The translations under genes and the position numbers were made by a program. A stretch of DNA of 64,000 nucleotides. Source: Alphaproteobacteria bacterium (lineage in GTDB: Bacteria; Pseudomonadota; Alphaproteobacteria; UBA828). Location of the stretch: NCBI GenBank assembly GCA_965214705.1, contig OZ243972.1, positions 3,200,001 to 3,264,000 on the forward strand, in the 5' to 3' direction. Below the pieces are notes generated by a model. That model did not search any database, was not told the DNA's origin, and was given only the letters and a program-made list of their open reading frames with translations. The first letter of the stretch is position 1. Each line of letters starts with the position of its first letter. This document shows, one piece after another, positions 8,473 through 38,903 of this stretch.

Positions 8473-8481
8473 GCGCGTATC

Positions 8482-8742: not shown

Positions 8743-8773
8743 GCAGGCCACGGCGGGTAAGGAGACGTCGAGC

Positions 8774-9067
8774 ATGACGACGGCAGACGACGCCGGCAAT
8801 CTCGTGGGCCCGGTGATGCGCGCGGGCGACATCGCCGATGCGGTGCTCGAAGCGATCCAGGAGGACAACGAGGGGCGCGAGGTCATCACCGAGGAACACG
8901 CGTCCTACATCCGGATCAAGGTCGCGGACGAGTGCTTCGTGCGCTTCGAGACGGTGGGCGACGTGCTGGGCCGCACGGTCACCCGCGGCGACATCGAGGC
9001 GAACATGCCGAGCTTCGCAGGGTTCATTCGCACCGAACCGGACGGCATCCGGTTCGTCGCGCGCTAG
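8774..9067 (+). CDS. monooxygenase effector/coupling protein (TmoD/MmoB family)
   Basis: NLVGPVMRAGDIADAV..AI.EDN, YIRI, LGR, NMPSFAG. Confidence 0.9.
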   Translation: MTTADDAGNLVGPVMRAGDIADAVLEAIQEDNEGREVITEEHASYIRIKVADECFVRFETVGDVLGRTVTRGDIEANMPSFAGFIRTEPDGIRFVAR

Positions 9068-9078
9068 GGAGTACGGAC

Positions 9079-10943: not shown

Positions 10944-10973
10944 GGCACAGCCTGCCGCCCCGGCCTGCGTCGT

Positions 10974-12989
10974 TCAGGCGACCCGGAGCGTCGGCTGCTC
11001 ATTGCGCGCCTGCCCCGGCACCTCCCAGTGGGCCGCGGTGCGGCGGCGCAGCATGTCGCGGAACTGCCGGGTGGTGTTGGGTAGAAGCTCGCCCGTGCCC
11101 CAGTCCACGATCACGCCGTACTGGCGAATCAGGTCGAGCGCGTCGAGCTCCTTGCTGCGGTACTTGGCTGCGATGTCCTCCGCATCCACGTCGAGCCAGG
11201 CGTGGCGCTGGGTGCGGATGCGCTCGCGCTCAGCCGCGGTCGCTGCTTCATCCACCTCGTATTCGGCGAGGTCGGCATCGATCTCGCGGACCACGACGCC
11301 ATAGTCCTTCTTCGCCCGCTCGATGGAGACGTAGCCGTCGGCCACGTCCTCGCACACCGTTGCGGGATCGCGCGTGAGGGGGTCGCCGAGCCCGCCGCCG
11401 CCGGCCGACGGCCGGGTCACGGTGTCGCCGGCCTCCACCGGCACGCCCGAGAAGATCGAGCCCAGGTAGCGTTCGCCCTGCGTGCCGGGATTGACCCAGA
11501 CCCCGTGCGGAATCGACGGCAGCCCGCCCCAGAGCCCCCAGGTCACCGAGCGCTCGCGGTCGCAGCAGTAAGAGACCACCGAGCGCTCCGCCTTGGTGAG
11601 GATCGCGCCCTTCTCGACGCCGAGGCCGCCGCGCGAGTTGCCGGGCCCGCCGGAATCGACGATGAGCTCGTGGCCGGTGGTCAGCACCGGGGCGAGCCGC
11701 TCCTGCCCCTCGAAGGGCTGGGTGCCGAGCTGGACGCCGAAGACCGGCCCGGTGGCGCCCCAGCCGTCGCGGCCGTTGCGCGCGCCCCAGCCGCCCACCA
11801 TCCAGTCGTACCACATGAAGTAGGGGCGGTCCTCCTTGCGGCCGTCGCGCCCGCCGATCAGCAGGTACTCGAGGTTGAAGGTGCAGGCCATGGCGCGCTC
11901 GGGCAGGATTTCGGCCCAGAGCTCGAACACCGAGTTCATGATCTTCTCGAACGGGCCCGAGCAGAAGCCCGCGACAGGCGTCGGCCAGTCCGCGTTGACC
12001 ACGGTGCCCTTGGGTCCGAGATCGACCGTGACCACCCGGTAGAAGCCGGAGTTCAGCGGGATGTCGGGCGATTGCATCTTGGTGCCGGCGACGATGGCCG
12101 CGAAGGCGCCGCCGTAGCAGCAGTTGAGGAAGGTCGAGATCGTCTTCGGGTGCGAGCCGGAGAGATCGTAGTGCACGCTGTCGCCGTCGATGGTCATCTT
12201 GATGCGGATCGGGATCAGCCCCTCGCCGGCGACCGGGTCCACGTCGATGTAGTCCTCGGTCTCCCACACGCCGTCGGGCAGCCTGGCGATGCGCTGGCGA
12301 GTCAGCGTCTCCACGTAATCCTGCACCTCGGCGAAGGAGGTCTGGATCACGTCGACGCCGTACTTGTCGCAGAGCCGGCCGACCTCCCGCTCCGCGACGT
12401 TGCAGGCCTCGGCCTGGGCCTGGAGGTCGCCGATGATGTCGGCGGGCGCGCGGGTGTTGTTGGCGATCAGCTCCGCCACGTCCGAGAGGTACTCGCCCTT
12501 GCTGTAGACCCGTACCGGCGTGATGCGGAGCCCCTCGGCCATGTGGTCGAGCGCGCTCACGTTGAACGAGCCCGGCACCGCGCCGCCGACATCGGCCCAG
12601 TGCCCGTTGGCCTGGGAGAAGCCGAGGTGGATGCCCTTGTAGAAAATGGGGCGGACGATGCGCGTGTCGTTGAAGTGGGTGCCGCCCTGGTAGACGTCGT
12701 TCACGACGAAGGTATCGCCGGGGTGGATGTCGTCGCCGAACTTGTTGATGACGGCCTGGGCGGTGTAGTGCAGCGTGCCCACGTGGGCGGCGATGTCGCC
12801 CGAGCCCTGCATGATGGTGTTGCCTTCGGTGTCGCAGATCGCCGAGGAAAAATCCCGCGACCAGATCACGAAGGAGTAGCAGGTGCGGAAAATCTGCTCC
12901 GCCATCTGGTCGACGATGTTGACGTAGGCGTTCTTGAGCACCTCGAAGGTCACGGGGTCGAGCGTGTAGCCTTCTCCGTTCTTGCTCAT
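10974..12989 (-). CDS. hydantoinase B / oxoprolinase family subunit
   Basis: LDPVTFEV, RDFSSAI, HVGTL, GTHFND, GHWADVGG, GGGGLGDP. Confidence 0.92.
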   Translation of the reverse strand: MSKNGEGYTLDPVTFEVLKNAYVNIVDQMAEQIFRTCYSFVIWSRDFSSAICDTEGNTIMQGSGDIAAHVGTLHYTAQAVINKFGDDIHPGDTFVVNDVYQGGTHFNDTRIVRPIFYKGIHLGFSQANGHWADVGGAVPGSFNVSALDHMAEGLRITPVRVYSKGEYLSDVAELIANNTRAPADIIGDLQAQAEACNVAEREVGRLCDKYGVDVIQTSFAEVQDYVETLTRQRIARLPDGVWETEDYIDVDPVAGEGLIPIRIKMTIDGDSVHYDLSGSHPKTISTFLNCCYGGAFAAIVAGTKMQSPDIPLNSGFYRVVTVDLGPKGTVVNADWPTPVAGFCSGPFEKIMNSVFELWAEILPERAMACTFNLEYLLIGGRDGRKEDRPYFMWYDWMVGGWGARNGRDGWGATGPVFGVQLGTQPFEGQERLAPVLTTGHELIVDSGGPGNSRGGLGVEKGAILTKAERSVVSYCCDRERSVTWGLWGGLPSIPHGVWVNPGTQGERYLGSIFSGVPVEAGDTVTRPSAGGGGLGDPLTRDPATVCEDVADGYVSIERAKKDYGVVVREIDADLAEYEVDEAATAAERERIRTQRHAWLDVDAEDIAAKYRSKELDALDLIRQYGVIVDWGTGELLPNTTRQFRDMLRRRTAAHWEVPGQARNEQPTLRVA

Positions 12990-13011
12990 TGTCTCTTCCT
13001 CGCTCTCTGCA

Positions 13012-15066
13012 TCAGCCTTCGGCCTGCGGAATGTGCATGACGATGGTGTGCCAGGGGTCGACCTCGGCCTTGAGGCCGGGCGGCACCAGCACCGTGGAAT
13101 CGAGCTGCTCGATGATCGCCGGCCCTTCGACCACCGCGCCGGCGTGCAGGGCGTCGCGGTCGTAGATGGGCGTCATGATCGCGTCAGGCGCCTCGTCGAA
13201 GACCACCGGCCGCTCGGTCTCGGGCGCCGGCGCCGAGCGGTCCATCTCTTCCCTCGCGAACTCCGCCTTCTGCGAAAGCCCGGTGGCGGTGACCGTGAGG
13301 CGGTAGATCTCGACCGGCGCATCGGGCCTGGAATAGTTGTGCTCGCGGCCGTGCTCCTCGTGGAACTGGGCGATCGCCGCATCCAGCGAGCCGGCAGTCG
13401 CGTCCACCTTGATCGACATGGAGCGCCACTGGCCGAGGTAGCGCATGTCGACGAAGCGCTCGAACTGCATGCGGTCCTCGGTCACGCCCTCGTGTAGGAG
13501 CCGCTCGCGGCCCTCGTCCTCCAGCGTGCTGAAGGTCTGCTCGACCTCCTCGATCTTCGCATCGTCGGTAGAGCGCAGATACATCTGCGACATGTCGTGC
13601 TTGATATCCACCAGCAGGCAGCCGAGCGCGGAGGTGACGCCGGGGTTCGGCGGTACCAGCACGGTCGGGATCGAAAGGTCGCGGGCGAGCGCCACGCCAT
13701 GCAGCGGCCCGGCGCCGCCGAACACTGTCAGCGCGAAGTCGCGCGGGTCGTAGCCCCGCCGGATCGAGACCAGGCGCACGGCGTCCGCCATGTTGGCGTT
13801 GGCCACCTGGAGTATGGAGACAGCCGCCTCCTGCACCGTGAGCCCGAGCGGGTCGGCGATGCGGCGCTTGATCGCCTCTTCGGCGAGCGAGCGGTCCAGG
13901 GTGACGGCGCCGCCCGCGAGCCTGTCGCTGATGCGGCCGAGGACGATGTTGGCGTCGGAGTTGGTGGGCTCCACGCCGCCCCGGCCGTAGCAGGCGGGAC
14001 CGGGCGACGAGCCTGCCGACTGCGGGCCGTTGCGGAGCGAGTTGGCCTCGTCGATCCAGGCGAGCGAGCCGCCGCCCGCGCCGATGGTCAGCACCTCGAT
14101 GCTAGGGAAGCAGATCGGGTAGCCGTACTGCACGTACCAGTCGGTGGTGACCCGCAGGTTGCCCCGGTCGCAGAGCGAGACGTCGGTGCTGGTGCCGCCC
14201 ATGTCCAGGCTGATCGAGTTCTCGTAGCCAGCGAGCTGGGCGACGAAGCGGCTCGCGATGGCGCCCGCCGCGATGCCAGAAGCGGCGAGCCGGGCCGCGA
14301 ACTTGGACGCCGTGCTCTCGGTCATCACGCCGCCACCGGAGTGCAGCAGCAGAATGTCCTCTTCGTAGCCGCCTTCGCGGAGCCGCGTGGCGAGGCGCCC
14401 CACGTAGTCGCCGGCGACCGGCGCGAGCACGGCGTTGGCCACCGTCGTCGAGAAGCGCTCGTGCTCGAAGATCTCGGGCATGATCTCGCTGGAGAGCGAG
14501 ATGGAGGCGCCGGGGACTTCCTCTTCGAGGATGTCGCGCATGCGGCGCTCGTTCTCGGGATTGGCGAAGGCGTTGGCGAAGCAGACGGCGATGGTCGTCA
14601 CGCCGCGCTTGTTGATGATGCGGGCGGCCTCCCGCGCCTCCGCCTCGTTCACCGGCTCGATGACCGCGCCGCTGTAGTCGATGCGCTCGCTGACCACCAG
14701 GCGGTTGCGGCGCTGGATGTAGGGCGGCGCCATCTCCTTATAGGTGTCCCACAGGTCGTCGCGGGTGCCTCGGCGGATCTCGATCACGTCGCGGAAGCCC
14801 TTGGTGGTGACCATGATCGCGGGCGGGAAGTTGCGCGTGATCAGCGCGTTGGTGGCGAGCGTGGTGCCGTGAGCGAAGAGCACCATGTCCTGGAGGTCCA
14901 CCCCGCCGGCCCTGATGCCCTCCAGCACGCCGTCGATGGGGTCGGGCGTCGTCGGGGTCTTGGCGACGCGCATCTGGCCGGACGCTTCGTCTAGGACGCA
15001 CACGTCGGTGAAGGTGCCGCCGACATCACACGCGACGCGAACGGCCGCCCTCGACACGTCATTCAT
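13012..15066 (-). CDS. hydantoinase A / oxoprolinase family ATP-binding subunit
   Basis: DVGGTFTD, HGTTLATNA, DMGGTSTD, IGAGGGS, GPQSAGSSPGPACYG, FGGAGPLH. Confidence 0.93.
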   Translation of the reverse strand: MNDVSRAAVRVACDVGGTFTDVCVLDEASGQMRVAKTPTTPDPIDGVLEGIRAGGVDLQDMVLFAHGTTLATNALITRNFPPAIMVTTKGFRDVIEIRRGTRDDLWDTYKEMAPPYIQRRNRLVVSERIDYSGAVIEPVNEAEAREAARIINKRGVTTIAVCFANAFANPENERRMRDILEEEVPGASISLSSEIMPEIFEHERFSTTVANAVLAPVAGDYVGRLATRLREGGYEEDILLLHSGGGVMTESTASKFAARLAASGIAAGAIASRFVAQLAGYENSISLDMGGTSTDVSLCDRGNLRVTTDWYVQYGYPICFPSIEVLTIGAGGGSLAWIDEANSLRNGPQSAGSSPGPACYGRGGVEPTNSDANIVLGRISDRLAGGAVTLDRSLAEEAIKRRIADPLGLTVQEAAVSILQVANANMADAVRLVSIRRGYDPRDFALTVFGGAGPLHGVALARDLSIPTVLVPPNPGVTSALGCLLVDIKHDMSQMYLRSTDDAKIEEVEQTFSTLEDEGRERLLHEGVTEDRMQFERFVDMRYLGQWRSMSIKVDATAGSLDAAIAQFHEEHGREHNYSRPDAPVEIYRLTVTATGLSQKAEFAREEMDRSAPAPETERPVVFDEAPDAIMTPIYDRDALHAGAVVEGPAIIEQLDSTVLVPPGLKAEVDPWHTIVMHIPQAEG

Positions 15067-15172: not shown

Positions 15173-16051
15173 CTAACACTTGAGGATGGGGCGGGCGTTC
15201 TTGCCGGCGATGGCGGGGCGGAGCGCGCCCCACGCGTTGAACAGAGCCTCGTGAGCCTGCCAGGTTTCGTGGCTCAGGATGCGGACGATCACCAGGTTGC
15301 CGATGCGGGTGACGCCGGCCTCGGTGCCGTCCACGCCTTCGATCGCCTCGTGCACGTCGTCCTCGACATCCGGCGGCAGATCAGGCGCGTAGCCGAACGC
15401 CATTGCCATGTGCAGCCGGCCGAGCCAGAGCCGCTGCAGCGCGGCGATAGTCTCGGGCGTGGTCGCCACCAGGCGGTCGAGAGCGACCAGGCGGCCGCCG
15501 ATGACGATGCGGAACTCCGAGACCAGATGGTGGAAGCGAAAGACCTCGCCGTCGCCGTAGTGCACGCGGCCGGCCGAGACCATGTCGGTGGCGAAGAGCC
15601 GGGACGAGGGCTCCAGCGCGATCCGGTTGATCCGGTGCACCCGGCTGCGGGCGAAGGGGATCGCCTCGTCCGGGCAGAACTCCAGCAGCGCATTCTCGCC
15701 CACGTGGAGGTCCACGATCTCGCGCGAAATGGCGCCGCCGGGGCACTTGTAGAACTTGCTCGACGCGGTGGTGGTGAAGAGGGCGCGGGTGCCGGGCTCC
15801 AGCACGCCGTGGAAGTGCGAGACGTCGCCCTCGACGAAGCCGCCGCCGCTGTTCACCAGCAGCATGAACGGCTGGTCGTCGTGGTCCTGGTAGTGGTAGC
15901 CCTGCCACTGGAAGGGAATGCGCCAGCAGAGCGGGTCGATTTCCGTGCGCCCGAGCCTGCTCGACGCGCGGACGTTCATCAGCGCGTACTTACCGACGAT
16001 CCATTCGGGATCAGGCTGTACCGGCGCGCTGCTCGGCTCCGTCATGCCCAT
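15173..16051 (-). CDS. ureD: urease accessory protein UreD
   Basis: [37 protein letters not shown]; position in the ure operon. Confidence 0.85.
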
Positions 16052-16655
16052 CCATCAGGAGAACGTCGCGCTCGATCCAGGCGATCACCTCGGCAAGGCC
16101 ATCGCCGGCGCGCAGGTTGGTGAAGAGGAAAGGCCGCGTGCCCCGCATCTTCCTGGAATCGCGCTCCATCACGCCGAGGTCGGCGCCTACCATCGGCGCG
16201 AGGTCGATCTTGTTGATGACCAGCAGCGGCGACTTGGTTATGCCGGGTCCGCCCTTGCGCGGGATCTTGTCGCCCTCGGCCACGTCGATCACGTAGATGT
16301 AGCTGTCCACCAGCTCGGGGCTGAAGGTCGCCGCGAGATTGTCGCCGCCGCTCTCGACGAAGACGATGTCGAGGTCGGGATGCAGCGCCGCCATCTCCTC
16401 GATGGCGTGGGCGTTCATCGAGACATCCTCGCGGATCGCCGTGTGCGGGCAGCCGCCGGTCTCGACCCCGGCCACGCGCTCGGGCGCGATGGCGCCCGAC
16501 TTGATGACGAACTCGGCGTCTTCTTTGGTGTAGATGTCGTTGGTGATGGCGGCCAGCGAATGGTTCGGCCCCATGCTGCGGCAGAGCGACACCAGCAGCG
16601 CCGTCTTGCCCGACCCCACCGGCCCGCCGATGCCGATCCTGACCGGCTTGCGCAT
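16011..16655 (-). CDS. ureG: urease accessory GTPase UreG
   Basis: [33 protein letters not shown]. Confidence 0.95.
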
Positions 16656-16730
16656 CCACAAGTCTCCCCGTTTTCCTGCGTCTAACGTCGCGTTTCCGAA
16701 ACGAAAGAGTAGAGTGCTCCCGTCCCCGTC

Positions 16731-16872: not shown

Positions 16873-17571
16873 TCACGACATGCAGAGCCGCGTGTGCAGG
16901 CGCTCGTGGCGCATGCTGGCGACATCGAGGCCGGCGGTGGCGCTGCCGAGTGTGTCCAGCTCCATGGCGCAGGCGTTCTCGGTGCCCTGTGTCAGCAGCG
17001 GCCAGGCCTCCCTGACGATGCGCTGGCTCTCGATCTGGCCGAGCGGGATCAGCCGTGCCCCGACGCTGACGAGGTTGGAGAGCGCGGCGTGTAGGAAGGC
17101 GAGCACCGCGTCGTCGGAGCCGATCCCCTGCGCCTCCGCCGCCGCGCCGAAGATCACCGCCTGATGTCCCTCGCAGCGCCCGTCGCGCACCGCCTCCGCA
17201 AAGGGCGCGAGGGACTCCGCCGAGAAGACGTCGCGATAGGCGCCCAGCAGCGCGCGCCCGGTCTTGAACGAGGCCTCGCGCGCTTCCCGACTGAGCTTGA
17301 GCGCGCCCACGACGTGGTCGAGGTCCACCAGCCCGTCGAGATCGCCTGCGGCGGCGCGGCGATGGGCATGGGCGACCGCGGCGCCATCCGTCGGCACGGC
17401 GGCGTAGCCGAGCCAGTCCCGGCAGGCGCTCTCGAAGCTCGCGGCGTCGTCCAGCGCGCCCGAGTCGATCCAGGTCTCGAAGCCGTAGGAGTGGTTGAAC
17501 GCGCCGGTCGGGAACGAGGCGTTCGCAACTTGCAGCAGGTAGAGGAGCCGGTCGGGCGCGTCAGTGCTCAT
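16873..17571 (-). CDS. ureF: urease accessory protein UreF
   Basis: FPTGAFNHSYGFE, LIPLGQ, RHERLHTRLCMS C-terminus. Confidence 0.92.
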   Translation of the reverse strand: MSTDAPDRLLYLLQVANASFPTGAFNHSYGFETWIDSGALDDAASFESACRDWLGYAAVPTDGAAVAHAHRRAAAGDLDGLVDLDHVVGALKLSREAREASFKTGRALLGAYRDVFSAESLAPFAEAVRDGRCEGHQAVIFGAAAEAQGIGSDDAVLAFLHAALSNLVSVGARLIPLGQIESQRIVREAWPLLTQGTENACAMELDTLGSATAGLDVASMRHERLHTRLCMS

Positions 17572-18052
17572 GGTGATGGTCGTGGTGGCCGTGGTGATCG
17601 TGATGGTGGTGGGCGCCGTGAGCGCCGTAGCGGCGGCCGACGAAGGGGATGGTGCGCTCCTCGTAGGAGATGCCGAGACGCGTGAGCAGATCCGCCACCA
17701 TGGGATCGGCCGGGGTCAGCATCCCCTCGTCGGTGAAGCGGACCGGCCGGTGCAGGTTGCCGAGCTGATAGCCGGCGACGCCCCAGGTGTACGCGTCGTC
17801 CGGGCTGACGACGTAGAGCGCCTCCGGCGCGGCGCGCGCCACCACCGCCGTGGTGCCTTCCAGCGCGAGCACGTCGCCGTCGTTGATCTCGGTGCCGCGC
17901 GGGAGCGAGATGCGCACGTCGCGCCCCCCTTCGGAGCGTCCCACCAGATGGGCGCTGGCACGCTCCTCCGAGTTGAGCAGCACCGGGTCCTCGCTCTCGA
18001 ATCGGCTGCGCAGGGACTCGATCGTGCCGAGGACCTCGGTGACGACCGCCAT
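17561..18052 (-). CDS. ureE: urease accessory nickel chaperone UreE
   Basis: YQLGNLH and His-rich tail HHHHDHHGHHDHHHEH. Confidence 0.9.
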   Translation of the reverse strand: MAVVTEVLGTIESLRSRFESEDPVLLNSEERASAHLVGRSEGGRDVRISLPRGTEINDGDVLALEGTTAVVARAAPEALYVVSPDDAYTWGVAGYQLGNLHRPVRFTDEGMLTPADPMVADLLTRLGISYEERTIPFVGRRYGAHGAHHHHDHHGHHDHHHEH

Positions 18053-18076: not shown

Positions 18077-19783
18077 TTAGCGGAAGTAGAAGAGCTGGGT
18101 CAGCGGCAGGGTCTTCGCCGGCTTCACCGTGATGCGCTCGCCATCGACGTAGACGTTGTAGGTCTCCGGGTCGATCTCGATATCCGGCAGCGCGTCGTTG
18201 TGGATCATGTCGCGCTTGGAGATGGTGCGGCAGCGCTTCACCGGCACCAGCCTCTGGGTCTCGATCTGGTCCGCAAGCCCGTTGTCGAGCGCCGCCTTGG
18301 TGACGAAGGAGTAGCTCGTCCGCTTCGGGTTGACGCCGAGGGAGCCGTACTGCGGCCGGTACTTGAGCGGCTGGCCGGTCATCAGCGAGCCCGCCGGGTC
18401 GCCCATCACCGCGTGCGAGATGAAGCCGCCCTTCAGCGTCACCTCGGGCTTCGCGATGAAGAACTCGGGCCGCCAGAACACCAGGTCCGCGAGCTTGCCC
18501 GGCGTGATCGAGCCCACGTAGGAATCGACGCCGAAGCAGATCGACGGGTTGATCGTCACCTTGGCGAGGTAGCGCTTGATCCTGAAGTTGTCGTTGCCCG
18601 AGCCGTCCTCCGAGAGCCGTCCGAAGCGCACCTTGTTGACAGCCGCGAGTTGGAAGGAGCGCTGCGCGCTCTCTGCCGCGCGGCCCACGCCCTGGCTGTC
18701 GGAGCCGATCATGCTGATCGCGCCCATGTCGTGCAGCACGTCCTCGGCCCGCATGGTCTCCGCGCGAGCGCGGCCCTGAATGAAGGCGATGTCCGTCGGC
18801 ACGCTCTTGTTCAGGTTGTGGCAGGTGATCAACATGTCGATCTCTTCGTCGTACGTGTTGATCGAGAACGGGTTGGTCGGGTTGGTCGAGCTCGGAAGCA
18901 GGTTGGGCTCGCCGCAGACCCGCATCATGTCCGGCGCGTTGCCGCCGCCCGCGCCCTCGCAGTGGTAGATGTGCATGACGCGGCCGTTGATGGCCGCGAT
19001 GGTGTCCTCGTAGTAGCCGGTCTCGTTGAGCGTGTCGGCGTGAATCTGGACCTGAAAGTCGTACTCGTCCGCAAGCTCCATGGTGGTCTCGATGGCGGCG
19101 GGCGAGGACGACCAGTCCTCGTGGATCTTGAGCCCCGTGGCGCCGGCCAGGATCTGCTCCACCAGAGAGCCCGGCGTCGCCGCGTTGCCCTTGCCGAAGT
19201 TGCCGAAGTTGAGCGGGATGTCCGCCATCGCCTCCAGCATCCGCTGGATGTTGAAGACGCCGGGACACTCGATGCCCACCGTCTTCGGCCCCGAGCCGCC
19301 GCCGATCACCGTGGTGAAGCCCGCGTTCTGGTACTCGTAGAGCTGCTGCACGGAATCGAAGTGGGGGTGGATGTCTACGAAGCCCGGCGTGCAGATCATG
19401 CCCTCGACCGAGAGGATGTCGGTGTTGGGCGAGACGATCAGCCCCGGCGTGATGTTCATGGTGTCCGGGTTGCCGGACTTGCCGACGCCGACGATCTCGC
19501 CGTCCAGCACGCCGATGTCGCCCTTCACGACGCCGAGGATCGGATCGATGATCACGGCGTTGGTGATCACCATGTCGAGCCCGCCGTCGCTCTGCTTCCA
19601 CTTCGACGCCTGGCCCATGCCGTCGCGGATGGTCTTGCCGCCGCCGAAGACGAGCTCGTCGCCGTAGGTGGTGTAGTCGTGCTCGATCTCGGCCACGAGG
19701 CCGGTGTCGGCGAGGTGAATCTTGTCCCCGGTGGTCGGCCCGTACTGCGCGGCGTAGTCCGGGCGGGCGATCTTCATGCTCAT
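18077..19783 (-). CDS. ureC: urease alpha subunit-like nickel amidohydrolase (divergent)
   Basis: YGPTTGD, FGGGKTIRDGMGQ, HPH, GLKIHEDW, HADTLNE, HCEGAGGG, PSSTNPT, CHNL, SDSQ. Confidence 0.9.
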   Translation of the reverse strand: MSMKIARPDYAAQYGPTTGDKIHLADTGLVAEIEHDYTTYGDELVFGGGKTIRDGMGQASKWKQSDGGLDMVITNAVIIDPILGVVKGDIGVLDGEIVGVGKSGNPDTMNITPGLIVSPNTDILSVEGMICTPGFVDIHPHFDSVQQLYEYQNAGFTTVIGGGSGPKTVGIECPGVFNIQRMLEAMADIPLNFGNFGKGNAATPGSLVEQILAGATGLKIHEDWSSSPAAIETTMELADEYDFQVQIHADTLNETGYYEDTIAAINGRVMHIYHCEGAGGGNAPDMMRVCGEPNLLPSSTNPTNPFSINTYDEEIDMLITCHNLNKSVPTDIAFIQGRARAETMRAEDVLHDMGAISMIGSDSQGVGRAAESAQRSFQLAAVNKVRFGRLSEDGSGNDNFRIKRYLAKVTINPSICFGVDSYVGSITPGKLADLVFWRPEFFIAKPEVTLKGGFISHAVMGDPAGSLMTGQPLKYRPQYGSLGVNPKRTSYSFVTKAALDNGLADQIETQRLVPVKRCRTISKRDMIHNDALPDIEIDPETYNVYVDGERITVKPAKTLPLTQLFYFR

Positions 19784-19806: not shown

Positions 19807-20313
19807 TCAGTCGCCGTCCTTGCCGCCGAACTTCTCGTCGGGCGGGGTCTGGACCGGATAGCGCTCGCCCTCGAAGCAGTAGCCCTCGGCCCTGAGGCGG
19901 CGCATGGTCTGCTCCTTGATGATGCCGGAGCGGACCGAGCCGTTGGTCATGTTGTTCATGCCGTAGGCGACCTGGCGGCCGACGTAGCCGGTGATCTGCA
20001 CCTTGCGGCTCTGGCCGGGCTCGAAGCGCACGGCGCTGCCGGAAGGCACGTCGAGGCGCATGCCGAACGCCGCCTCGCGATCGAAGGCCATCGCCCTGTT
20101 GCACTCGGCGAGGTGATAGTGGGCGCCGATCTGGATCGGCCGGTCGCCGGTGTTGACCATGACGATCTCGATCGCGGGGCGATCCGCATTGATCTCGATG
20201 TCGCCCTCGGCGAAGTCGATGGCGCCGCACTTCTCCGGCTCGCCCACCTCGAACGCCTCGTCCGGCACGATCGATTCCGGCAGCGGCGGCGGGCTCCATT
20301 TTCTCTTAGCCAT
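19807..20313 (-). CDS. ureB: urease beta subunit-like protein (N- and C-terminal extensions)
   Basis: NTGDRPIQIGAHYH, GMRLDVPSGSAVRFEPG. Confidence 0.9.
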   Translation of the reverse strand: MAKRKWSPPPLPESIVPDEAFEVGEPEKCGAIDFAEGDIEINADRPAIEIVMVNTGDRPIQIGAHYHLAECNRAMAFDREAAFGMRLDVPSGSAVRFEPGQSRKVQITGYVGRQVAYGMNNMTNGSVRSGIIKEQTMRRLRAEGYCFEGERYPVQTPPDEKFGGKDGD

Positions 20314-20338: not shown

Positions 20339-20650
20339 CTACTCGCGGATCGGGTTCATCACCGTGACGAGCTTGGTCCCGTCCGGGAACATGGCCTCGA
20401 CCTGGACGATCTTCATCATCTCGGGCACGCCCGTCATCACGTCCTCGCGCTTCAGGATGGTGGCGCCGTACTCCATCATGTCTGTCAGCATGGGGATGCT
20501 GCCCTCGCGTGCGCGCTCTAGAATCTCGTCGCAGATCAGCGCAATCGCCTCGGGGTAGTTCAGCTTGACGCCGCGATCGAGGCGCCGCCGGGCCATCTCC
20601 GCCGCGGCCCAAATCTGTATCCGTTCTTCTTCACGTACAGTGAGATGCAT
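20339..20650 (-). CDS. ureA: urease gamma subunit
   Basis: MHLTVREEE, GVKLNYPEA, FPDGTKLVTV. Confidence 0.93.
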   Translation of the reverse strand: MHLTVREEERIQIWAAAEMARRRLDRGVKLNYPEAIALICDEILERAREGSIPMLTDMMEYGATILKREDVMTGVPEMMKIVQVEAMFPDGTKLVTVMNPIRE

Positions 20651-20985: not shown

Positions 20986-21741
20986 GTGGACAGCCAGATG
21001 GAGTGGTTTTCGGGAGAGCTGGACAAGGCAAGCTCCTTCGATCAGGCGCTGGACATCCTCGCCCAAATTACCGCCGACATGGGTTACACGCAGGTCCTCT
21101 ACGCCTATCAGCGAACAGCGCGTCTCGCGGACGGCGAGTGGGTTCCACTCAAGCTCAACGTCCGTAACTTTCCTGCAGGCTGGGAGCGTCAGTGGGAGGC
21201 CTTCGGCTCTCACGATCCGTACTACCGGGCATGCTTCGAGACGACCCTGCCCTTCGATTGGCACGACGTTCAACGACGCGAACATCTTCACCCGGCCCAG
21301 GCAAAAGCATGGCGCTATCTCGCGGACCTCGGGCTCGGTCGCGGTATGACCATACCTGTCCATCTTCCCTGGGGGCGGTTCGCGGTGGTCAGCGCCATCG
21401 TCGACCGGTCGACGAGCAATTGGTCGCACATCAAGGATGCGACGCGGGATCCCATGTTTCACCTCACCCACCTCTTTCACGACACCGTGCGACGCAATGG
21501 ATTCGAGGATCAGGTGCAGGTCGCGTCATGCGTCCGACTCAGTCCGCGAGAAACGGAATGCCTGCAATGGGCGGCGGCGGGCAAGACCTCACCCGAGATA
21601 GCCCGGATCATCGACCGATCGGTCGAAACCGTGCGCCTCCACCTCAAGAACGCCTTCCACAAGCTTGGTGCGAACAACAAGGGACATGCGATTGGCAAGG
21701 CCGTGCAACTCGGATTGGTCGAGCCGATCGACCGGCATTGA
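20986..21741 (+). CDS. LuxR-family regulator with autoinducer-binding domain (LuxR solo)
   Basis: NFPAGW...DP.....FDW N-terminal domain; LSPRETECLQWAAAGKTSPEIA HTH; no luxI in the window. Confidence 0.9.
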   Translation: MDSQMEWFSGELDKASSFDQALDILAQITADMGYTQVLYAYQRTARLADGEWVPLKLNVRNFPAGWERQWEAFGSHDPYYRACFETTLPFDWHDVQRREHLHPAQAKAWRYLADLGLGRGMTIPVHLPWGRFAVVSAIVDRSTSNWSHIKDATRDPMFHLTHLFHDTVRRNGFEDQVQVASCVRLSPRETECLQWAAAGKTSPEIARIIDRSVETVRLHLKNAFHKLGANNKGHAIGKAVQLGLVEPIDRH

Positions 21742-21890
21742 CTACCCAATTATGTTAACCTGTTTATGGAGCCTCGTTCGGGGAGTGTCCGTCGACTAGA
21801 TTATTCCCTAGCCTGCCAACTCGATGGCCGTGCCAGGCCGGCTGACGGAGCAGGCTGGGCGGTTGTAACCGGAAATCAGGGAGGTGGTCG

Positions 21891-23198
21891 ATGCGGCGCA
21901 AACTCACATTAGGGAAGGCCGTTGGCGCGGCCCTTGCAGCGATAGGCATGGTGGCGCTGGCCGGTCTGGCGAACAATTCGGCGCAGGCCGCGACGGACGA
22001 GGAGATCATCCTTTGCACGATCGATGATCTTTCCGGCGATTTCTCGATCATGGCGACACCCAAGACCTACGGCTATCAGCTGGCGGTCAAGGAGGTGAAC
22101 GAGGCTGGCGGCATCATGGTGGATGGCGCCCAGAAGATGATCAAGCTGATCACCTACGATGGGCAGTCCCAGGTCAAACGCTATCAGGAGCTTGCACAAA
22201 AGTGCATTTTCGACGACGAGGCCGATGTCGTCATGGCAGCGTACACGGGCGCCGAGCGTGAGGCGGCCCGCCGCGAAGTGGTCCGCAACGAGGTCATCTA
22301 CTGGCATAACAATCAGGGCGAGGGCGGGATTGCCGACAGGTACTCGTTCTTCTCCGGCCCCACGCCTGAGCAGCAGGTCCTGCCGGCGCTCAAGTGGATG
22401 ATCGAGAATTACGGCACGCGGATGATTTACATCGGTGCTGACTACAACTTCTGCCGGGCGATCGGTATGTGGACCCGAACGGCCGCCAATCTCTATGGCG
22501 GAACCATCGAGTATGAGGAGTACTTCCCGTTCGGTGTCTCGCAATGGCAGGCGACGATCGACAGAATTCAGAAGGTCGCGCCGGACTTCCAGGTCCATTG
22601 TCTCGTCGGTGCCGAGCATGTGCAGTTCTATCCGCAGGCGCAGTCGGCAGGCCTGTCGACGCCGACATGGTCAAACGTGACTATCGCGGACGGCTACGAG
22701 CACAAGCGTTTCGCGCCGCCCTCGCTGGCGAACATGCATGTCTCGCCGGGCTACATCGAGGATGTGCCCCACGAGAACAGCGTGGAGTTCGTCCGCAAGC
22801 TGCGCGAAATGTTCCCAGACATGCTGTACGCAAACGAGCACGCGGGCTTCGGTTATGTGGCGGTGAAGGCAATGGCTAACGCCTGGGCCAAGGCCGGCAC
22901 GACGGACACCGACGCGGTGATCGACGCCTTGCAGTCGGATATCGAGGTACCGGAGGCGCCGGGGGGTCCGTGGAAGCTCCATGGCGACCAGCATCACGGC
23001 GCCATGCATTCATACCTGTTCAAGGTGAACGACGATCACAGCCTGACGCTGATCGCTGACCTCGGTTACACCGAGCCAACATTCCTCAGCGACATCGGCG
23101 TGAACATGCGTGAGAAGGCGCCGGGTCGTCAGTATCTGCCGCCGGACAATCCGGCATGGGCGCCCTTCTTCGAGGGTCAGGAACGCGTCGGGCAGTGA
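21891..23198 (+). CDS. UrtA/AmiC-like ABC substrate-binding protein
   Basis: Signal peptide, LAVKEVNEAGG, YDGQS, PEQQ, GADYNF; periplasmic binding protein type 1. Confidence 0.85.
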   Translation: MRRKLTLGKAVGAALAAIGMVALAGLANNSAQAATDEEIILCTIDDLSGDFSIMATPKTYGYQLAVKEVNEAGGIMVDGAQKMIKLITYDGQSQVKRYQELAQKCIFDDEADVVMAAYTGAEREAARREVVRNEVIYWHNNQGEGGIADRYSFFSGPTPEQQVLPALKWMIENYGTRMIYIGADYNFCRAIGMWTRTAANLYGGTIEYEEYFPFGVSQWQATIDRIQKVAPDFQVHCLVGAEHVQFYPQAQSAGLSTPTWSNVTIADGYEHKRFAPPSLANMHVSPGYIEDVPHENSVEFVRKLREMFPDMLYANEHAGFGYVAVKAMANAWAKAGTTDTDAVIDALQSDIEVPEAPGGPWKLHGDQHHGAMHSYLFKVNDDHSLTLIADLGYTEPTFLSDIGVNMREKAPGRQYLPPDNPAWAPFFEGQERVGQ

Positions 23199-23212
23199 AT
23201 TGCCCCGGCGCT

Positions 23213-23237
23213 GGCGGCCGGCATAATGCCGGCCGCC
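23213..23237 (+). terminator. stem-loop after the substrate-binding gene (mRNA stabiliser or attenuator)
   Basis: GGCGGCCGGCAT-A-ATGCCGGCCGCC; no U-tract. Confidence 0.4.
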
Positions 23238-23293
23238 CCGCCCTGCCCCGCGGCGGGGCGCCGGCACGTAGCAGCGGGAGCGGATAGGGCGCC

Positions 23294-24205
23294 ATGGATG
23301 TCGCGGCCGACGTCTTCAGCTACGCCTATCAGTATTTCGACAATATCGGATTTCTGATTCTCTCGGCGTCCGGCCTCATCATCATTTTCGGGATGATGGG
23401 CGTCATCAACATGGCTCATGGCGAGTTGATGATGATCGGCGCCTACATAACGGCGTTCTCCTATCATGCCGGTGTTCCAGCCCCCTTGGCCATCATCTTC
23501 GCTGGCATCGGTGCCGGCCTAGCCGGCATGGTTCTGGAGCGCCTGGTCATCCGGCACTTTTACAAGCAGCTCCTCTCGTCGCTGGTGGTGACATGGGGGC
23601 TGAGCCTGATGATCAGCCAAGGATTCCTGCTGATATTCGGGCCGACGATACTTAACGTGCCGACTCCGTTCGGCAACTTTCCAGTGGCAGAGCAGACCTT
23701 CGGGATCTATCGGCTTGTCCTGTTCGGTGGTGCACTGGCCATCGTCGCCGGAGTCTGGGCCGTGTTCACCTTCACCAAGTTCGGCACTCACGCCCGGGCC
23801 ACGATGGAAGACCCGGACATGGCCGACGCGCTGGGCGTGAACACGCGCAACATCTACGTCCTCACTTTCGGCATTGGTGCCGCCATGGGCGGCGTCGCAG
23901 GCGGCATGTTCGCGCTGACGGCGACGATTTCGCCGTTCTTCGGCATCAACTACACGCCGCTCGCATTCATCACCGTCGTGGTCGGCGGTGGTGCCAACGT
24001 CATCACCGGGCTGCTGTCGAGCGTGATGGCGCTCGCCGGCGTACAGACCGCAGTCAACAACTTGGTCAATGTCTATGTCGGCTACATTGCCATGATGGGC
24101 GCGGCTTTCTTCATCCTGCTCCTGCTCCCCAGGGGAATTTCGGAGTATCTCGAGCGCCGCAAGATACGGACGGAGCGGAAGGTGAGCCGCAGTGCGCCAG
24201 CATAG
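23294..24205 (+). CDS. UrtB/LivH-like permease
   Basis: GLIIIFGMMGVINMAHGELMMIGAY. Confidence 0.9.
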   Translation: MDVAADVFSYAYQYFDNIGFLILSASGLIIIFGMMGVINMAHGELMMIGAYITAFSYHAGVPAPLAIIFAGIGAGLAGMVLERLVIRHFYKQLLSSLVVTWGLSLMISQGFLLIFGPTILNVPTPFGNFPVAEQTFGIYRLVLFGGALAIVAGVWAVFTFTKFGTHARATMEDPDMADALGVNTRNIYVLTFGIGAAMGGVAGGMFALTATISPFFGINYTPLAFITVVVGGGANVITGLLSSVMALAGVQTAVNNLVNVYVGYIAMMGAAFFILLLLPRGISEYLERRKIRTERKVSRSAPA

Positions 24206-25292
24206 CGTTTTGGACCGCTACCTCGGCCCGCTGAACGGTCCTCACACGATGGGCCGCGGAGTCGCCTTCTGGGTCGGTTTCGTGGTCGTGGTTGCCGTGC
24301 TCGCGAGCTTTCCCGAGTACATGCGCCGCTACGATATTATAAATCTCAGCAACTTCCTGATTTCGGGCTTCCTCGCCCTTAGCCTCGGCCTGATCTGGGG
24401 TTATTGCGGCGTTCTCAGCCTTGGCCAGGCCGCGTTCCACGGAATCGGCGGCTATGCCTACGGTATCGTTGCGCTCAATCTCTTCAACGCGCACGGCAAT
24501 ACCGACATCGCGTTCTTCGCCGGTATTGTGGTCCCCGTTGTCTTTGCCGCAATCATTGGCGGGATCATGTTCTTCGCGCGATTGCGCGGCGTCTATATCG
24601 CGATCTTGATGCTCGTGGTCTCGCTGCTGATCGGCACGTTCATGCGTCAGACTGCCGATCCGAGCTACACAATCGGTGCGGCCTATTTGGGAGGAATGAA
24701 CGGACTCAGGCCCGCCTCCGTCGACGACCCGTTGCTCCCCAGCCTAATTTTTGGCCTCGGCGAGACGGTGATCGAGTTGGACGGCCGCCGCCCTGCCTTC
24801 TTCTACTTCGTTCTGGGGCTGCTGGTGGCAGTCTATCTGGGCCTCCGCTGCTTGGTGAACTCCAGCTACGGCTACTTGTTGATCGGCTGCCGGGAAGATC
24901 CTAACAGGACGGAGACTTTCGGTTACGATGTGCGTCTGATCCAGCTCGGCGTCTTCTGCATTGCTGCCGCGATCGCGGGGCTCTCGGGAGTGCTCTACAC
25001 GGCGTGGGGAACCTACATTCATCCGGACGGTTTCGGCGTCGCGCCCAACATTCTTGTCGTCATCTGGGTCGCGGTCGGCGGCCGCAAGGATCTCGGCGCC
25101 GCGATCGCGGGTGCGATCGTGCTCGAATGGGTATCGCTCAGACTTGCGGCCGAAGGCGAAATTGCGTTCCTTGTGCTGGGCGCCATTCTAGTCGGCGTTA
25201 TGCTGATCGCGCCGAACGGCCTCGGCATCACTATCGGCGACTACATCCGGCGAGGCCACGATCGGGCGATCGACTGGGTGCGTGCGCGGTGA
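24192..25292 (+). CDS. UrtC/LivM-like permease
   Basis: LIWGYCGVLSLGQAAF, GGMNG, VIWVAVGGR. Confidence 0.9.
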   Translation: MRQHSVLDRYLGPLNGPHTMGRGVAFWVGFVVVVAVLASFPEYMRRYDIINLSNFLISGFLALSLGLIWGYCGVLSLGQAAFHGIGGYAYGIVALNLFNAHGNTDIAFFAGIVVPVVFAAIIGGIMFFARLRGVYIAILMLVVSLLIGTFMRQTADPSYTIGAAYLGGMNGLRPASVDDPLLPSLIFGLGETVIELDGRRPAFFYFVLGLLVAVYLGLRCLVNSSYGYLLIGCREDPNRTETFGYDVRLIQLGVFCIAAAIAGLSGVLYTAWGTYIHPDGFGVAPNILVVIWVAVGGRKDLGAAIAGAIVLEWVSLRLAAEGEIAFLVLGAILVGVMLIAPNGLGITIGDYIRRGHDRAIDWVRAR

Positions 25293-26032
25293 GCGCGCTA
25301 GCCGAAAGGAGCGCCGCCACGGGCGTCATCGTGGAGACCCGGTCGCTAAGCAAGATATTCGGCGGCGTGCGGGCCGTGGATGGGCTCGATCTCTCCATCC
25401 AGGAGGGCGAAATCCATTGCATCATCGGTCCTAACGGCGCCGGCAAGAGCACCTTGTTCAAGCTCCTCATGGGGATCGAGCGGCCGACGGCAGGCGCGAT
25501 CGTTCTCGACGATCACGACATCACGCACATGGCGCCGCACCTTCGTGCGCGTCGCGGATTGGCCATCAAGTTCCAGTCAATGCAGGTCTATCAGGACCTC
25601 ACCGTCTATCAGAACCTCTTCATTCCTCTGCGCCGCCACCATCGGCCGCGCGAGATCCCCGATCGCTGTGCCGACTTGCTTACCCAGCTACAGCTTACGG
25701 ACACCGAAGAGCGGATCGTAGGCGATCTCTCGCACGGGCAGCAGCAGTGGCTTGCCATCGGCATGTCGATGGCGGTGGATCCCAAGGTGCTGCTCCTCGA
25801 CGAGCCGACCGCTGGCATGTCGCCAGAGGAGACGCGGCAGACTGCGGCAATCGTGCGTCAGCTCAACGAGGCGGGCGTGACAATCGCCGTGATCGAGCAC
25901 GACATGGCGTTCGTGCGCGACCTCGATACGCGAACGACGGTATTGCACTACGGCAAGGTGTTTGCTCAGGGCGCGTTCGCAGACATCGAGCGGGACGACG
26001 ACGTGCACCGCATCTATCTCGGGAAGATCTGA
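25289..26032 (+). CDS. UrtD/LivG-like ATP-binding protein
   Basis: GPNGAGKST, LSHGQQQW, LLDEPTAGM, IEHDM; GTG start overlaps the previous stop. Confidence 0.9.
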   Translation: MSALAERSAATGVIVETRSLSKIFGGVRAVDGLDLSIQEGEIHCIIGPNGAGKSTLFKLLMGIERPTAGAIVLDDHDITHMAPHLRARRGLAIKFQSMQVYQDLTVYQNLFIPLRRHHRPREIPDRCADLLTQLQLTDTEERIVGDLSHGQQQWLAIGMSMAVDPKVLLLDEPTAGMSPEETRQTAAIVRQLNEAGVTIAVIEHDMAFVRDLDTRTTVLHYGKVFAQGAFADIERDDDVHRIYLGKI

Positions 26033-26045
26033 GGAGCCCGGCGCG

Positions 26046-26747
26046 ATGCTCCTCGATGTCAGTGGCCTGACCTCCGGTTACGGCAAGGTGCGCATCGTCA
26101 ACGACGTCTCGCTCAGTGTGGAGGAGCAGGAGATCGTCGCAGTGATCGGCCGCAATGGTGTCGGCAAGACCACGCTGATGAAAACTCTGGTCGGGCTGAT
26201 CCGGGGACTTGCCGGCACTGTTGAGTTTCGCAGCCAGGATGTGACTCGGATGCGCGCTGCCGAACGGGCGCAGCTAGGTATCGGCTACGTGCCGCAGGGG
26301 CGTGGCATCTTCGCCCGCCTGTCAGTCGCCGACAATTTGCGGATGGGTGAGCAGATCGGTGGCAGGGGCAAGGCGCCTGATTATGACCGCGTGCACGAGT
26401 ACTTTCCGATCCTGAAGGAGCGTCAGGCGCAGAAGGCAGGCTCACTCAGCGGCGGAGAGCAGCAGCAACTCGCGATAGGTCGCGTCCTCGTGGGCCATCC
26501 CGAACTCGTGTTGCTGGACGAGCCCTCGGAGGGGATCCAGCCCAACATCGTTCAGTCGATCGGCGAGATCATCAAGCGGCTGCGGACCGAAGTTGGATTG
26601 ACCTTCGTAATCGTGGAGCAAAACCTTGATCTCATAAATGCTGTGGCCGACCGTTGCCTGGTTATCGACAAGGGTTCGATTATCGCACGCCTGGACCCCG
26701 CGGAGCTGGCGGACCCAGAGATCGCCCGCAAATACCTAGCAATCTAA
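26046..26747 (+). CDS. UrtE/LivF-like ATP-binding protein
   Basis: GRNGVGKTT, YVPQGR, LSGGEQQ, LDEPSEGIQP; GAGGAG RBS. Confidence 0.9.
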   Translation: MLLDVSGLTSGYGKVRIVNDVSLSVEEQEIVAVIGRNGVGKTTLMKTLVGLIRGLAGTVEFRSQDVTRMRAAERAQLGIGYVPQGRGIFARLSVADNLRMGEQIGGRGKAPDYDRVHEYFPILKERQAQKAGSLSGGEQQQLAIGRVLVGHPELVLLDEPSEGIQPNIVQSIGEIIKRLRTEVGLTFVIVEQNLDLINAVADRCLVIDKGSIIARLDPAELADPEIARKYLAI

Positions 26748-38883: not shown

Positions 38884-38903
38884 CAATTGCTCCAAATTGA
38901 AGA

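Follow-up and report, generated by a model that had tools for sequence, protein, structure and literature searches.

A distinct urease clade with a remodelled active-site flap, encoded beside a LuxR-type regulator and a Urt-like importer

A 64,000-nucleotide stretch of DNA from an alphaproteobacterial genome (the window; contig OZ243972.1, positions 3,200,001 to 3,264,000) encodes a complete urease operon, whose alpha subunit, UreC, belongs to a separate clade of urease alpha subunits. The genes ureA, ureB, ureC, ureE, ureF, ureG and ureD are arranged co-directionally on the minus strand. The ureC open reading frame (ORF) spans positions 18077–19783, where a first-pass annotation made from the sequence alone had placed it. 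It encodes 568 amino acids from the start MSMKIARPDY and aligns with structurally solved ureases from its first residues. A longer listed ORF, extending to position 20299, overlaps ureB in a different frame. Within the window, ureC is present as a single copy.

UreA, UreB, UreC and UreG all exceed curated NCBIfam cut-offs. UreC scores 748.8 bits against TIGR01792 (cut-off 680) and 779.6 bits against NF009686 (cut-off 354). The gamma subunit UreA (20339–20650, 103 amino acids) scores 140 bits against NF009712 (cut-off 123) and 135.3 bits against TIGR00193 (cut-off 82.3). The beta subunit UreB (19807–20313, 168 amino acids) matches Pfam Urease_beta and, over residues 29–127, TIGR00192 at 126.1 bits (cut-off 90.3). 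Relative to beta-subunit models of 103–104 positions, UreB carries N- and C-terminal extensions. Its residues 27–146 correspond to positions 110–229 of the fused gamma/beta model NF009671, and its C-terminal part also matches a Helicobacter pylori UreA-type model. This C-terminal region participates in the higher-order assembly of the H. pylori and Yersinia ureases.

The accessory genes complete the operon. The maturation GTPase UreG (16011–16661; 216 amino acids as listed, with an uncertain start codon) scores 334.2 bits against TIGR00101 (cut-off 204.2). The nickel metallochaperone UreE (17561–18052, 163 amino acids) matches 12 NCBIfam UreE models with E-values of 7e-21 to 5e-9, all under the equivalog cut-offs, and its translation contains a His-rich C-terminal tail. 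UreF (16873–17571, 232 amino acids) and UreD (15173–16051, 292 amino acids) are identified by Pfam models PF01730 (139.7 bits) and PF01774 (146 bits), respectively; UreF gave no NCBIfam match at E ≤ 1e-5. The ureEFGD maturation set, which the first-pass annotation had described as intact, is complete by NCBIfam and Pfam, and ureA and ureB are present too.

Residues are numbered here as in Klebsiella UreC, unless stated otherwise. The numbering was verified on a fetched K. pneumoniae ureC sequence (HxH 134/136, Lys217, flap Cys319, His320 and Asp360) and concurs with the variant names in Protein Data Bank (PDB) titles. The window UreC contains His134, His136, Lys217, His219, Asp221, His246, His272, Cys319, His320, Arg336 and Asp360. 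All metal ligands and catalytic residues of Klebsiella UreC are present, as had been noted at first pass, and each Klebsiella motif quoted there matches the fetched sequence. The six metal ligands (His134, His136, Lys217, His246, His272 and Asp360), together with His219 and Arg336, are found in 55 of 55 clade representatives. Asp221 and His320 are each retained in 52 of the 55 and Cys319 in 46. His219, Asp221, Cys319, His320 and Arg336 serve in substrate binding or catalysis. UreA, UreB, UreD, UreE, UreF and UreG are all encoded in each of the 44 clade loci with full flanking sequence. An inactive pseudo-enzyme was considered and rejected, given the intact ligands, the strong conservation within the clade and the full maturation set in all of these loci.

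An AlphaFold 2 (AF2) model of UreC, built from a 38-sequence alignment, has a predicted template modelling (TM) score of 0.88. Superposition on the ureases of Sporosarcina pasteurii, Klebsiella aerogenes, H. pylori, jack bean and Yersinia yielded TM scores of 0.89–0.91 at 48–51% identity; for the S. pasteurii and K. aerogenes chains, the TM score was 0.91 and the root-mean-square deviation 3.7. The next fold class after urease, represented by allantoinase and dihydroorotase, reached TM scores of 0.43–0.46. The predicted local distance difference test (pLDDT) score falls below 50 at UreC residues 168–171, 277–281, 302–337 and 461–474, which correspond to active-site loops and the flap, and additionally at residues 41–56. 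The flap is drawn partly as strands in this model, which was built without metal, carbamate or partner subunits on a shallow alignment of 38 rows. In sequence searches, UreC scored 612–632 bits against the wild-type solved ureases of Yersinia, H. pylori, S. pasteurii, jack bean, pigeon pea, K. aerogenes and Helicobacter mustelae, and 528 bits against the 598-residue chain 9it2_C.

The first-pass annotation drew attention to six motif differences from Klebsiella UreC in supposedly near-invariant segments, and argued from these rebuilt loops that the enzyme probably hydrolyses a substrate other than urea. The differences are all real, including a three-residue gap in one loop, but the segments are not near-invariant. 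The comparison set consisted of relatives of P0098, the nearest non-clade group, retrieved by a search with P0098. All 21 aligned non-clade proteins contain the short loop GGGxGPxTVGI, the motif HxHF(D/E), SDSQGMGR and the form SL(M/P)xC(Q/E)P. Matches in the P0098 search carried the names Peptococcaceae, Oscillospiraceae, Lachnospiraceae, Paenibacillus, Domibacillus, Bacillus sp. 37MA, Oculatella, Leptolyngbya, Lyngbya and Synechococcaceae. Four of the six differences are thus lineage features of groups annotated as ordinary ureases, and for these the argument for a non-urea substrate fails. Two further differences, the losses of His312 and His321, are common to the characterised UreC of Yersinia enterocolitica, so neither residue defines the urease family.

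The same short-loop feature set is found in the ureC of a Klebsiella michiganensis IncN plasmid, and Haloarcula UreC has a different short loop form. Position 363 is Gly in 30 of 39 other ureases that were used as an outgroup. The long-loop ureases included in a 53-row tree (Klebsiella, Proteus, Sinorhizobium, Bacillus sp. S3 and Rokubacteria) form one clade with a Shimodaira–Hasegawa-like approximate likelihood ratio test (SH-aLRT) support of 99, nested among short-loop lineages. Distant urease-like outgroup representatives also align with short loops. This nesting and the short loops of the distant relatives suggest that the long loop of the Klebsiella type is derived. At UreC residues 161–175 (window positions 19259–19303), the long GGGTGPAxGTxATTxTPG loop of the solved ureases examined was apparently inserted in a single lineage, and the short form is found in most of the other lineages. 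None of the solved ureases inspected by sequence (Yersinia, H. pylori and Klebsiella) has the short loop, and we take the same to be true of the remaining solved chains. The short-loop ureases of cyanobacteria and Firmicutes presumably hydrolyse urea, judging by their annotation and by general background.

Database searches recovered approximately 90 clusters with 68–99% identity to the window UreC, followed by a gap down to 62%, and a genome scan identified 76 loci with a ureC of this clade. Its carriers belong to the Alpha- and Betaproteobacteria, Actinomycetota and Chloroflexota. Alphaproteobacterial carriers include many metagenome-assembled genomes (MAGs), Hansschlegelia, Methylopila, Chelatococcus, Camelimonas, Mesorhizobium, Pseudaminobacter, Hyphomicrobium, Roseovarius and Planktomarina. 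Further carriers are Burkholderiales, Mycobacterium sp. 141 and NAZ190054, Thermoleophilia and a Dehalococcoidales MAG. The database matches also take in Tara Oceans records and a large number of environmental genomes. In a plasmid collection, 169 records contained ureC relatives, with at most 53.9% identity among the matches listed; one plasmid record in the 60–80% identity band lay outside the matches listed. The clade is not evidently plasmid-borne in that collection. In Rhodobacteraceae bacterium QY30 (locus L051, 4352–7779 and 14602–15737), transposase/integrase genes bracket the urease cluster, with identical copies on both sides, an arrangement that fits mobility of the cluster.

For phylogenetic analysis, sequences at least 92% identical were collapsed, reducing 202 sequences to 81 representatives. 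Four of these (P0133, P0134, P0135 and P0144) seemed to be partial, chimeric or degenerate sequences and were left out of a 77-row tree. The 77-row and 53-row trees were quick searches without bootstraps, run on sets that contained no Yersinia sequence. The clade is monophyletic in both, with an SH-aLRT support of 100. P0098 is sister to the clade in the 77-row tree (SH-aLRT 98); its sister position is unresolved in the 53-row tree.

Clade-specific replacements were defined as alignment columns that are at least 85% conserved in each of two sets, the 55 clade representatives and the 39 other ureases, and differ between them. The outgroup of 39 contains no Yersinia-type sequences. The replacements found are Met154Val, Gly223Ser, Thr305Ser, His312Glu, Met317Ile, His321Asn, Ser335Gly, Ile342Met, Ala343Arg, Met364Val, Gly368Ala, Trp375Phe, Gln384Arg, Tyr407Val and Gly441Ile. 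With the flap taken as residues 307–350, converted from residues 312–355 as given in an excerpt of PMC7547064, six of these are flap residues: His312Glu, Met317Ile, His321Asn, Ser335Gly, Ile342Met and Ala343Arg. The same excerpt describes Yersinia Met369, the equivalent of Met364, as lying near the active site and possibly being able to reach it.

In the window UreC, Asn280, Glu312, Asn321 and Val364 replace the His, His, His and Met found at these positions in 39 of 39 outgroup sequences. The replacement His280Asn is present in 45 of the 55 clade representatives. The motifs specific to the clade in this sample are CHN (55 of 55), QGV (50 of 55), DEE(I) (47 of 55) and GGGN (45 of 55). The basal clade members P0047, P0088, P0090 and P0092 retain GGGH and QGMGR, so that the changes in the clade accumulated stepwise.

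Upstream of the urease operon and divergent from ureA lies a gene for a LuxR-family regulator (20986–21741, plus strand). It contains an autoinducer-binding-type domain (Pfam Autoind_bind PF03472, 82.5 bits) and a GerE domain (PF00196, 53.6 bits), and its best solved relatives are RhlR, LasR and QscR. The ligand domain was mapped by hand on an alignment with LasR. Of the residues that we take to be hallmarks of the family (TraR Trp57, Tyr61, Asp70, Pro71, Trp85 and Gly113), five of six are kept, and the equivalent of Tyr61 is Trp. No pairs forming a lux-box-like inverted repeat were found in the two intergenic regions searched.

Five genes on the plus strand follow the regulator and encode a putative ATP-binding cassette (ABC) importer whose nearest models are those of urea ABC transporters. 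The 435-residue periplasmic binding protein (21891–23198) scores 340.3 bits against TIGR03669 (cut-off 494.8) and 156.1 bits against TIGR03407 (cut-off 492.75). It is followed by permeases of the UrtB type (23294–24205; TIGR03622, 252.8 bits, cut-off 374.25) and the UrtC type (24192–25292; TIGR03727, 327.7 bits, cut-off 575.55). The UrtD-type ATPase (25004–26032 as listed) scores 237.4 bits against TIGR03411 (cut-off 304.1); its family match begins at residue 109 and the true start is probably near position 25300. Similarly, the family match of the UrtE-type ATPase (25962–26747; TIGR03410, 267.2 bits, cut-off 285.8) begins at residue 31, and its true start is probably near position 26046.

The solved relatives of the binding protein are the urea-binding proteins 8tg1, 8hic, 7s6e and 7s6f; AmiC is more distant. 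In Prochlorococcus marinus UrtA, urea is surrounded by Trp120, Ser122, Tyr141, Gln144, Glu146, Tyr190, Phe192, Asn246 and Ser274, and mutating Ser122, Gln144, Tyr190 or Asn246 lowers or abolishes binding, according to an excerpt of PMC10392092. These residues were mapped by a HMMER alignment and a 126-row MAFFT alignment. The window protein keeps four of the nine: Gln144, Glu146, Tyr190 and Phe192. Identity to the reference proteins is 22–47%, which places single columns at risk of misalignment, though the flanking motifs align cleanly. The changes Trp120Tyr and Asn246Val also occur in the urea-annotated Urt protein of Haloarcula, and on that basis they are regarded as features of this transporter type. 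Directly after Gln144, Gly takes the place of Tyr (QYEG to QGEG) in the three clade sequences inspected there. A Roseovarius locus (L072, 15275–20318) encodes a second binding protein, 47% identical to that of the window, in which Ser122 is kept and His occupies the position of Tyr141. Genes for a hybrid histidine kinase, a response regulator and another periplasmic binding protein lie beside it. This second protein may represent an intermediate stage within the transporter family.

The conservation of these neighbours was assessed in the 44 full-flank loci, 33 of which encode a UreC less than 96% identical to that of the window and 11 a UreC at least 96% identical. Among the 33, an orthologue of the binding protein is found in 28, the LuxR gene in 24 and both in 23. 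The five without a binding protein are three actinobacterial loci and two from alphaproteobacterial MAGs. Among the 11 close relatives, the binding protein, the LuxR gene and both are each present in one, locus L002 only. Locus L006, which has a shorter flank, also contains the LuxR gene and the Urt-like module. A phylogeny of the kind proposed at first pass therefore recovers a separate clade with a conserved LuxR and Urt-like neighbourhood.

In the window, the LuxR and Urt-like module (20986–26747) has a GC content of 0.61–0.63, and its GC content at third codon positions (GC3) is 0.71–0.80, compared with 0.84–0.95 around it. Owing to these lower values, the module in the window looks like a recent insertion. 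It is missing in 10 of the 11 full-flank loci of at least 96% UreC identity, and in several such loci (for example L003, L004, L005, L007 and L008) a gene for a FAD-monooxygenase lies directly upstream of ureA.

HupE/UreJ nickel-permease genes lie beside the cluster in loci L039, L051 and L072, which are all three of the proteobacterial loci whose Pfam-scanned flanks gave matches beyond a LuxR-type regulator. The Pfam-scanned flanks of L041 contained a LuxR gene and unrelated genes, and those of L066 yielded genes for a GerE regulator, an ABC exporter and a hydantoinase A, but nothing else. In two mycobacterial loci, a sodium:solute symporter preceded by an ORF of 94–130 amino acids takes the place of the ABC importer (L073, 7182–10004; L056, 7017–8958), and ureA and ureB are fused in L073 (Mycobacterium sp. 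141). A Thermoleophilia locus (L060, 3536–7650) has genes for a GAF-LuxR regulator, a 433-residue CN-hydrolase and an MFS transporter upstream of the urease genes, and an N,N-dimethylformamidase-beta-like gene approximately 9 kb downstream. ORF clustering across 79 loci, with Pfam and NCBIfam flank scans, found no further conserved family beyond the ure, Urt-like and LuxR genes and some HupE/UreJ genes. The flank scans covered GC3-filtered ORFs in 11 loci and core-cluster ORFs of L021 and L023, and high-GC shadow ORFs may mask weak associations.

Downstream of ureD, genes for a hyuA-like protein (13012–15066), a hyuB-like protein (10974–12989) and a short-chain dehydrogenase/reductase (SDR) continue on the minus strand (10254–15066 together), with gaps of 106, 22 and 30 bases. 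Membership of HyuA and HyuB in the hydantoinase A–B family is certain. Their best models are caprolactamase CapA (532.6 bits) and CapB (336.3 bits), each with a cut-off of 1000. Orthologues of hyuA and hyuB occur in only 3 of the 44 full-flank loci, almost all of these closely related to the window; the pair is adjacent to, but outside, the conserved system. Non-orthologous HyuAB pairs lie downstream of the urease genes in loci L001 and L003, and the hydantoinase A gene of L066 was noted above. The best model of the SDR is the isoprene-pathway dehydrogenase IsoH (278 bits, cut-off 350). Facing the SDR-hyuBA genes are soluble di-iron monooxygenase genes on the plus strand (6952–10068), which encode an alpha subunit with a YHS domain (6952–8472), a TmoB-like protein (8482–8742) and a beta subunit (8932–10068). 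Elsewhere in the window, an ORF at 40663–41847 contains DruA-like (Druantia) and DDE_Tnp_1-associated domains, and a NYN-domain protein is encoded at 38257–38928; both may be remnants of mobile or defence elements.

It is proposed that the window encodes a true urease of a new, uncharacterised subfamily with altered gating or kinetics, a reading to which a probability of approximately 0.55 is assigned. This proposal rests on a UreC that passes the equivalog cut-off, unchanged metal ligands, a predicted fold with a TM score of 0.91 to solved ureases, and loops common to annotated ureases. Also in its favour are the identified subunit and maturation genes, the HupE/UreJ genes beside related clusters, the losses of His312 and His321 in Yersinia urease, and an importer whose nearest models and solved relatives are those of urea uptake. 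Gene content, family assignment, residues, clade and gene neighbourhood are observed directly, and activity, metal, substrate and regulation are predicted. Judged from the sequence, there is hardly any doubt that the enzyme performs urease chemistry; urea is in all likelihood among its substrates and most probably its physiological one. The subfamily shows a burst of change centred on the flap and the rim of the pocket, after which it was tightly conserved and spread horizontally. The first-pass argument from the loops to another substrate is not supported, but a distinct subfamily with a changed flap and a changed binding protein is.

By homology, the enzyme would be matured by UreDFG and UreE, which would load two nickel ions onto a carbamylated Lys219 (window numbering; Lys217 in Klebsiella). 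In window numbering, the other nickel ligands would be His139, His141, His248, His274 and Asp362 (Klebsiella His134, His136, His246, His272 and Asp360). The substrate carbonyl would bind Ni1 and be polarised by His221, and an amide nitrogen would bind Ni2. A bridging hydroxide would then attack, with the flap residue His322 aiding the departure of ammonia. The remodelled flap and the smaller pocket-rim residue introduced by Met364Val probably change gating, pH response or kinetics rather than chemistry. In most members of the clade, a dedicated Urt-like ABC system would import the substrate, and the adjacent LuxR-type ligand-binding regulator probably controls the genes.

Several observations weigh against an enzyme devoted simply to urea, or favour a substrate that has shifted or broadened to a small urea analogue or short amide, such as N-methylurea, hydroxyurea, formamide or acetamide. 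Such a compound would be slightly larger than urea at most, or carry different substituents. The binding protein, the enzyme and the LuxR-type sensor would all have adapted to it together, and the same di-nickel hydrolysis would yield ammonia and a carbamate or amine. The stem of the clade, at 0.68 in the 77-row tree and 0.55 in the 53-row tree, is the longest internal branch of the urease ingroup, in which the other internal branches are at most 0.29 and 0.25, respectively; beyond this stem, conservation is strong across phyla. The 15 clade-specific replacements at conserved columns compare with 0–4 in four control groups of similar make-up (0, 3, 2 and 3 columns, or 0, 3, 1 and 4 with clade representatives in the comparison set), and mean identity to the rest is 57% for the clade and 65–68% for the controls. 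These replacements are concentrated in the flap, which holds 6 of the 15 and 26 of the 235 other conserved columns (one-sided Fisher p = 0.006), and around the pocket, with 9 of the 15 and 69 of the 235 lying within eight residues of a catalytic residue (p = 0.017). His312, His321, Met364, Trp375, Tyr407, Gly441 and Thr305 are constant in all 39 outgroup sequences, and Met364Val, beside the pocket, is found in 50 of the 55 clade representatives. In the binding protein, Ser122 is replaced by Gly in 120 of 120 clade sequences, with Ser in six of six reference proteins, and Tyr141 by His in 120 of 120, with Tyr in five of six references. With the QYEG to QGEG change, three residues of its pocket region have become smaller. 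The excerpt of PMC10392092 reports that Ser122 hydrogen bonds urea and is needed for binding. All five importer proteins fall under the curated urea cut-offs, several clade binding proteins are named by NCBI simply ‘ABC transporter substrate-binding protein’, and a ligand-binding LuxR-type regulator is linked to the urease in 24 of 33 loci. Many cultured carriers come from genera of methylotrophs, including Methylopila, Hansschlegelia and Hyphomicrobium, as does Pontibaca methylaminivorans. Jack bean urease reportedly acts on formamide, acetamide and N-methylurea (Dixon et al., 1980, by title). Full-text literature searches, which did not cover subscription journals, returned no paper on the clade, on a non-urea physiological substrate of a urease or on a LuxR-linked urease. 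However, the catalytic set is unchanged, the urease equivalog model is still passed, and two of the flap changes occur in the genuine urease of Yersinia. The neighbourhoods scanned revealed no conserved downstream enzyme that would handle a second product. The AF2 model loses its reliability precisely at the loops of the pocket, which means that no pocket volume can be derived from it, and Trp120Tyr and Asn246Val are type features of the transporter. The methylotroph link is anecdotal, as carriers also include Mycobacterium, Burkholderiales and Thermoleophilia. A substrate shift of this kind is accordingly viewed as a tentative possibility.

Two other explanations concern a specific neighbour and a specific property of the enzyme. 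The order of genes behind ureD, on the same strand and with the short gaps given above, would accommodate a urease relative that hydrolyses the N-carbamoyl product of HyuAB, for example N-carbamoylsarcosine formed from N-methylhydantoin, and genes of the hydantoinase family turn up again close to the urease genes in L001, L003, L023 and L066. Since hyuAB is not conserved with the clade (orthologues in 3 of 44 loci), this explanation is considered very improbable. Furthermore, the best model of the pair is a caprolactamase, far under its cut-off, and Urt-type and urease pockets would be very small for a carboxylate-bearing carbamoyl amino acid. The N-carbamoyl amino acids suggested as substrates at first pass are likewise unlikely, given the rarity of hydantoinase-like neighbours and an importer of the small-ligand Urt type. 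A more specific version of the true-urease reading holds that the flap changes adjust how an ordinary urease is gated or responds to pH, for example towards acid activation, which is a property of the Yersinia and Morganella ureases, while its substrate stays the same. The losses of His312 and His321 and the CHN motif are common to Y. enterocolitica UreC, the top solved relative, and in the account excerpted from PMC7547064 the flap opens or closes according to whether its histidine is protonated. The other four flap replacements and Met364Val are nevertheless absent from Yersinia, marine and soil carriers offer no obvious reason for acid activation, and the changed binding protein is left unexplained. 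This version is regarded as improbable.

It is conceivable, though doubtful, that the genes form a self-contained sense–import–hydrolyse module that has spread horizontally and been retuned from urea to another small nitrogen compound. The smaller residues that Met364Val introduces at the rim of the enzyme pocket, and Ser122Gly and Tyr141His in that of the binding protein, would suit a short amide or a mono-substituted urea, for instance methylurea or hydroxyurea. Were this so, the clade would be the first natural branch of the urease family to act physiologically on something other than urea, behind a ‘urease’ annotation in many bacteria of marine, soil and sludge habitats. In oceans, soils, sponges and wastewater, urea use is commonly tracked by way of urease genes, and the clade is annotated as plain urease. 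If its kinetics, gating or substrate differ, ureC-based inferences about urea cycling would need correction for its carriers. In addition, the textbook ‘invariant’ urease loop looks like a feature of one lineage, from which all solved structures seen here derive, and the structure and kinetics of a clade member or of any short-loop urease would close a real gap.

Comparison with known systems places the clade close to classical ureases. The ureases of K. aerogenes, S. pasteurii and H. pylori have the same set of subunit and accessory genes, the same ligands and the same catalytic residues, with TM scores of 0.90–0.91 and 48–51% identity. In contrast with these solved bacterial enzymes, clade UreC has a loop after GGGxGP that is three residues shorter, as in many ureases, and the 15 specific replacements, including His312Glu, His321Asn and Met364Val; His280Asn is added in 45 of the 55 representatives, and the UreB of the window, with its extensions, has 168 amino acids. 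The short-loop ureases of cyanobacteria (Oculatella and Leptolyngbya), Firmicutes (Paenibacillus, Domibacillus and Lachnospiraceae) and P0098 show 56–62% identity and have in common with clade UreC the short loop, HxHFD, SDSQG and SLMTCxP. Unlike the clade, they retain GGGH, DEHLDM, CHH and QGMGR, and they have 0–4 group-specific replacements at conserved positions.

The importer resembles UrtABCDE systems, exemplified by Prochlorococcus (UrtA, 8hic) and by the archaeal type of Haloarcula (TIGR03669), in its five-gene architecture beside urease genes and in its protein families. The Haloarcula Urt binding protein is approximately 36% identical to the clade orthologue in L072. The clade importer differs in that its five proteins score under the urea cut-offs and in the clade-specific changes Ser122Gly and Tyr141His.

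A natural variant with changes around an unchanged ligand set is also found in the H. mustelae iron urease UreA2B2 (PDB 3qga, 613 bits). UreA2B2 uses iron and needs no accessory proteins. The clade, in contrast, has a full nickel maturation set, and HupE/UreJ genes lie near related loci. Among solved enzymes, the Y. enterocolitica urease (PDB 4z42 and 6yl3) is the top-scoring relative at 631.9 bits, and it likewise lacks His312 and His321 and has the CHN motif. Unlike the clade, Yersinia UreC has the long loop, the Met of SDSQAMGR, Gly223, Ser335, Ile342 and Ala343. The Yersinia enzyme is treated as a urea-hydrolysing urease in the excerpt of PMC7547064.

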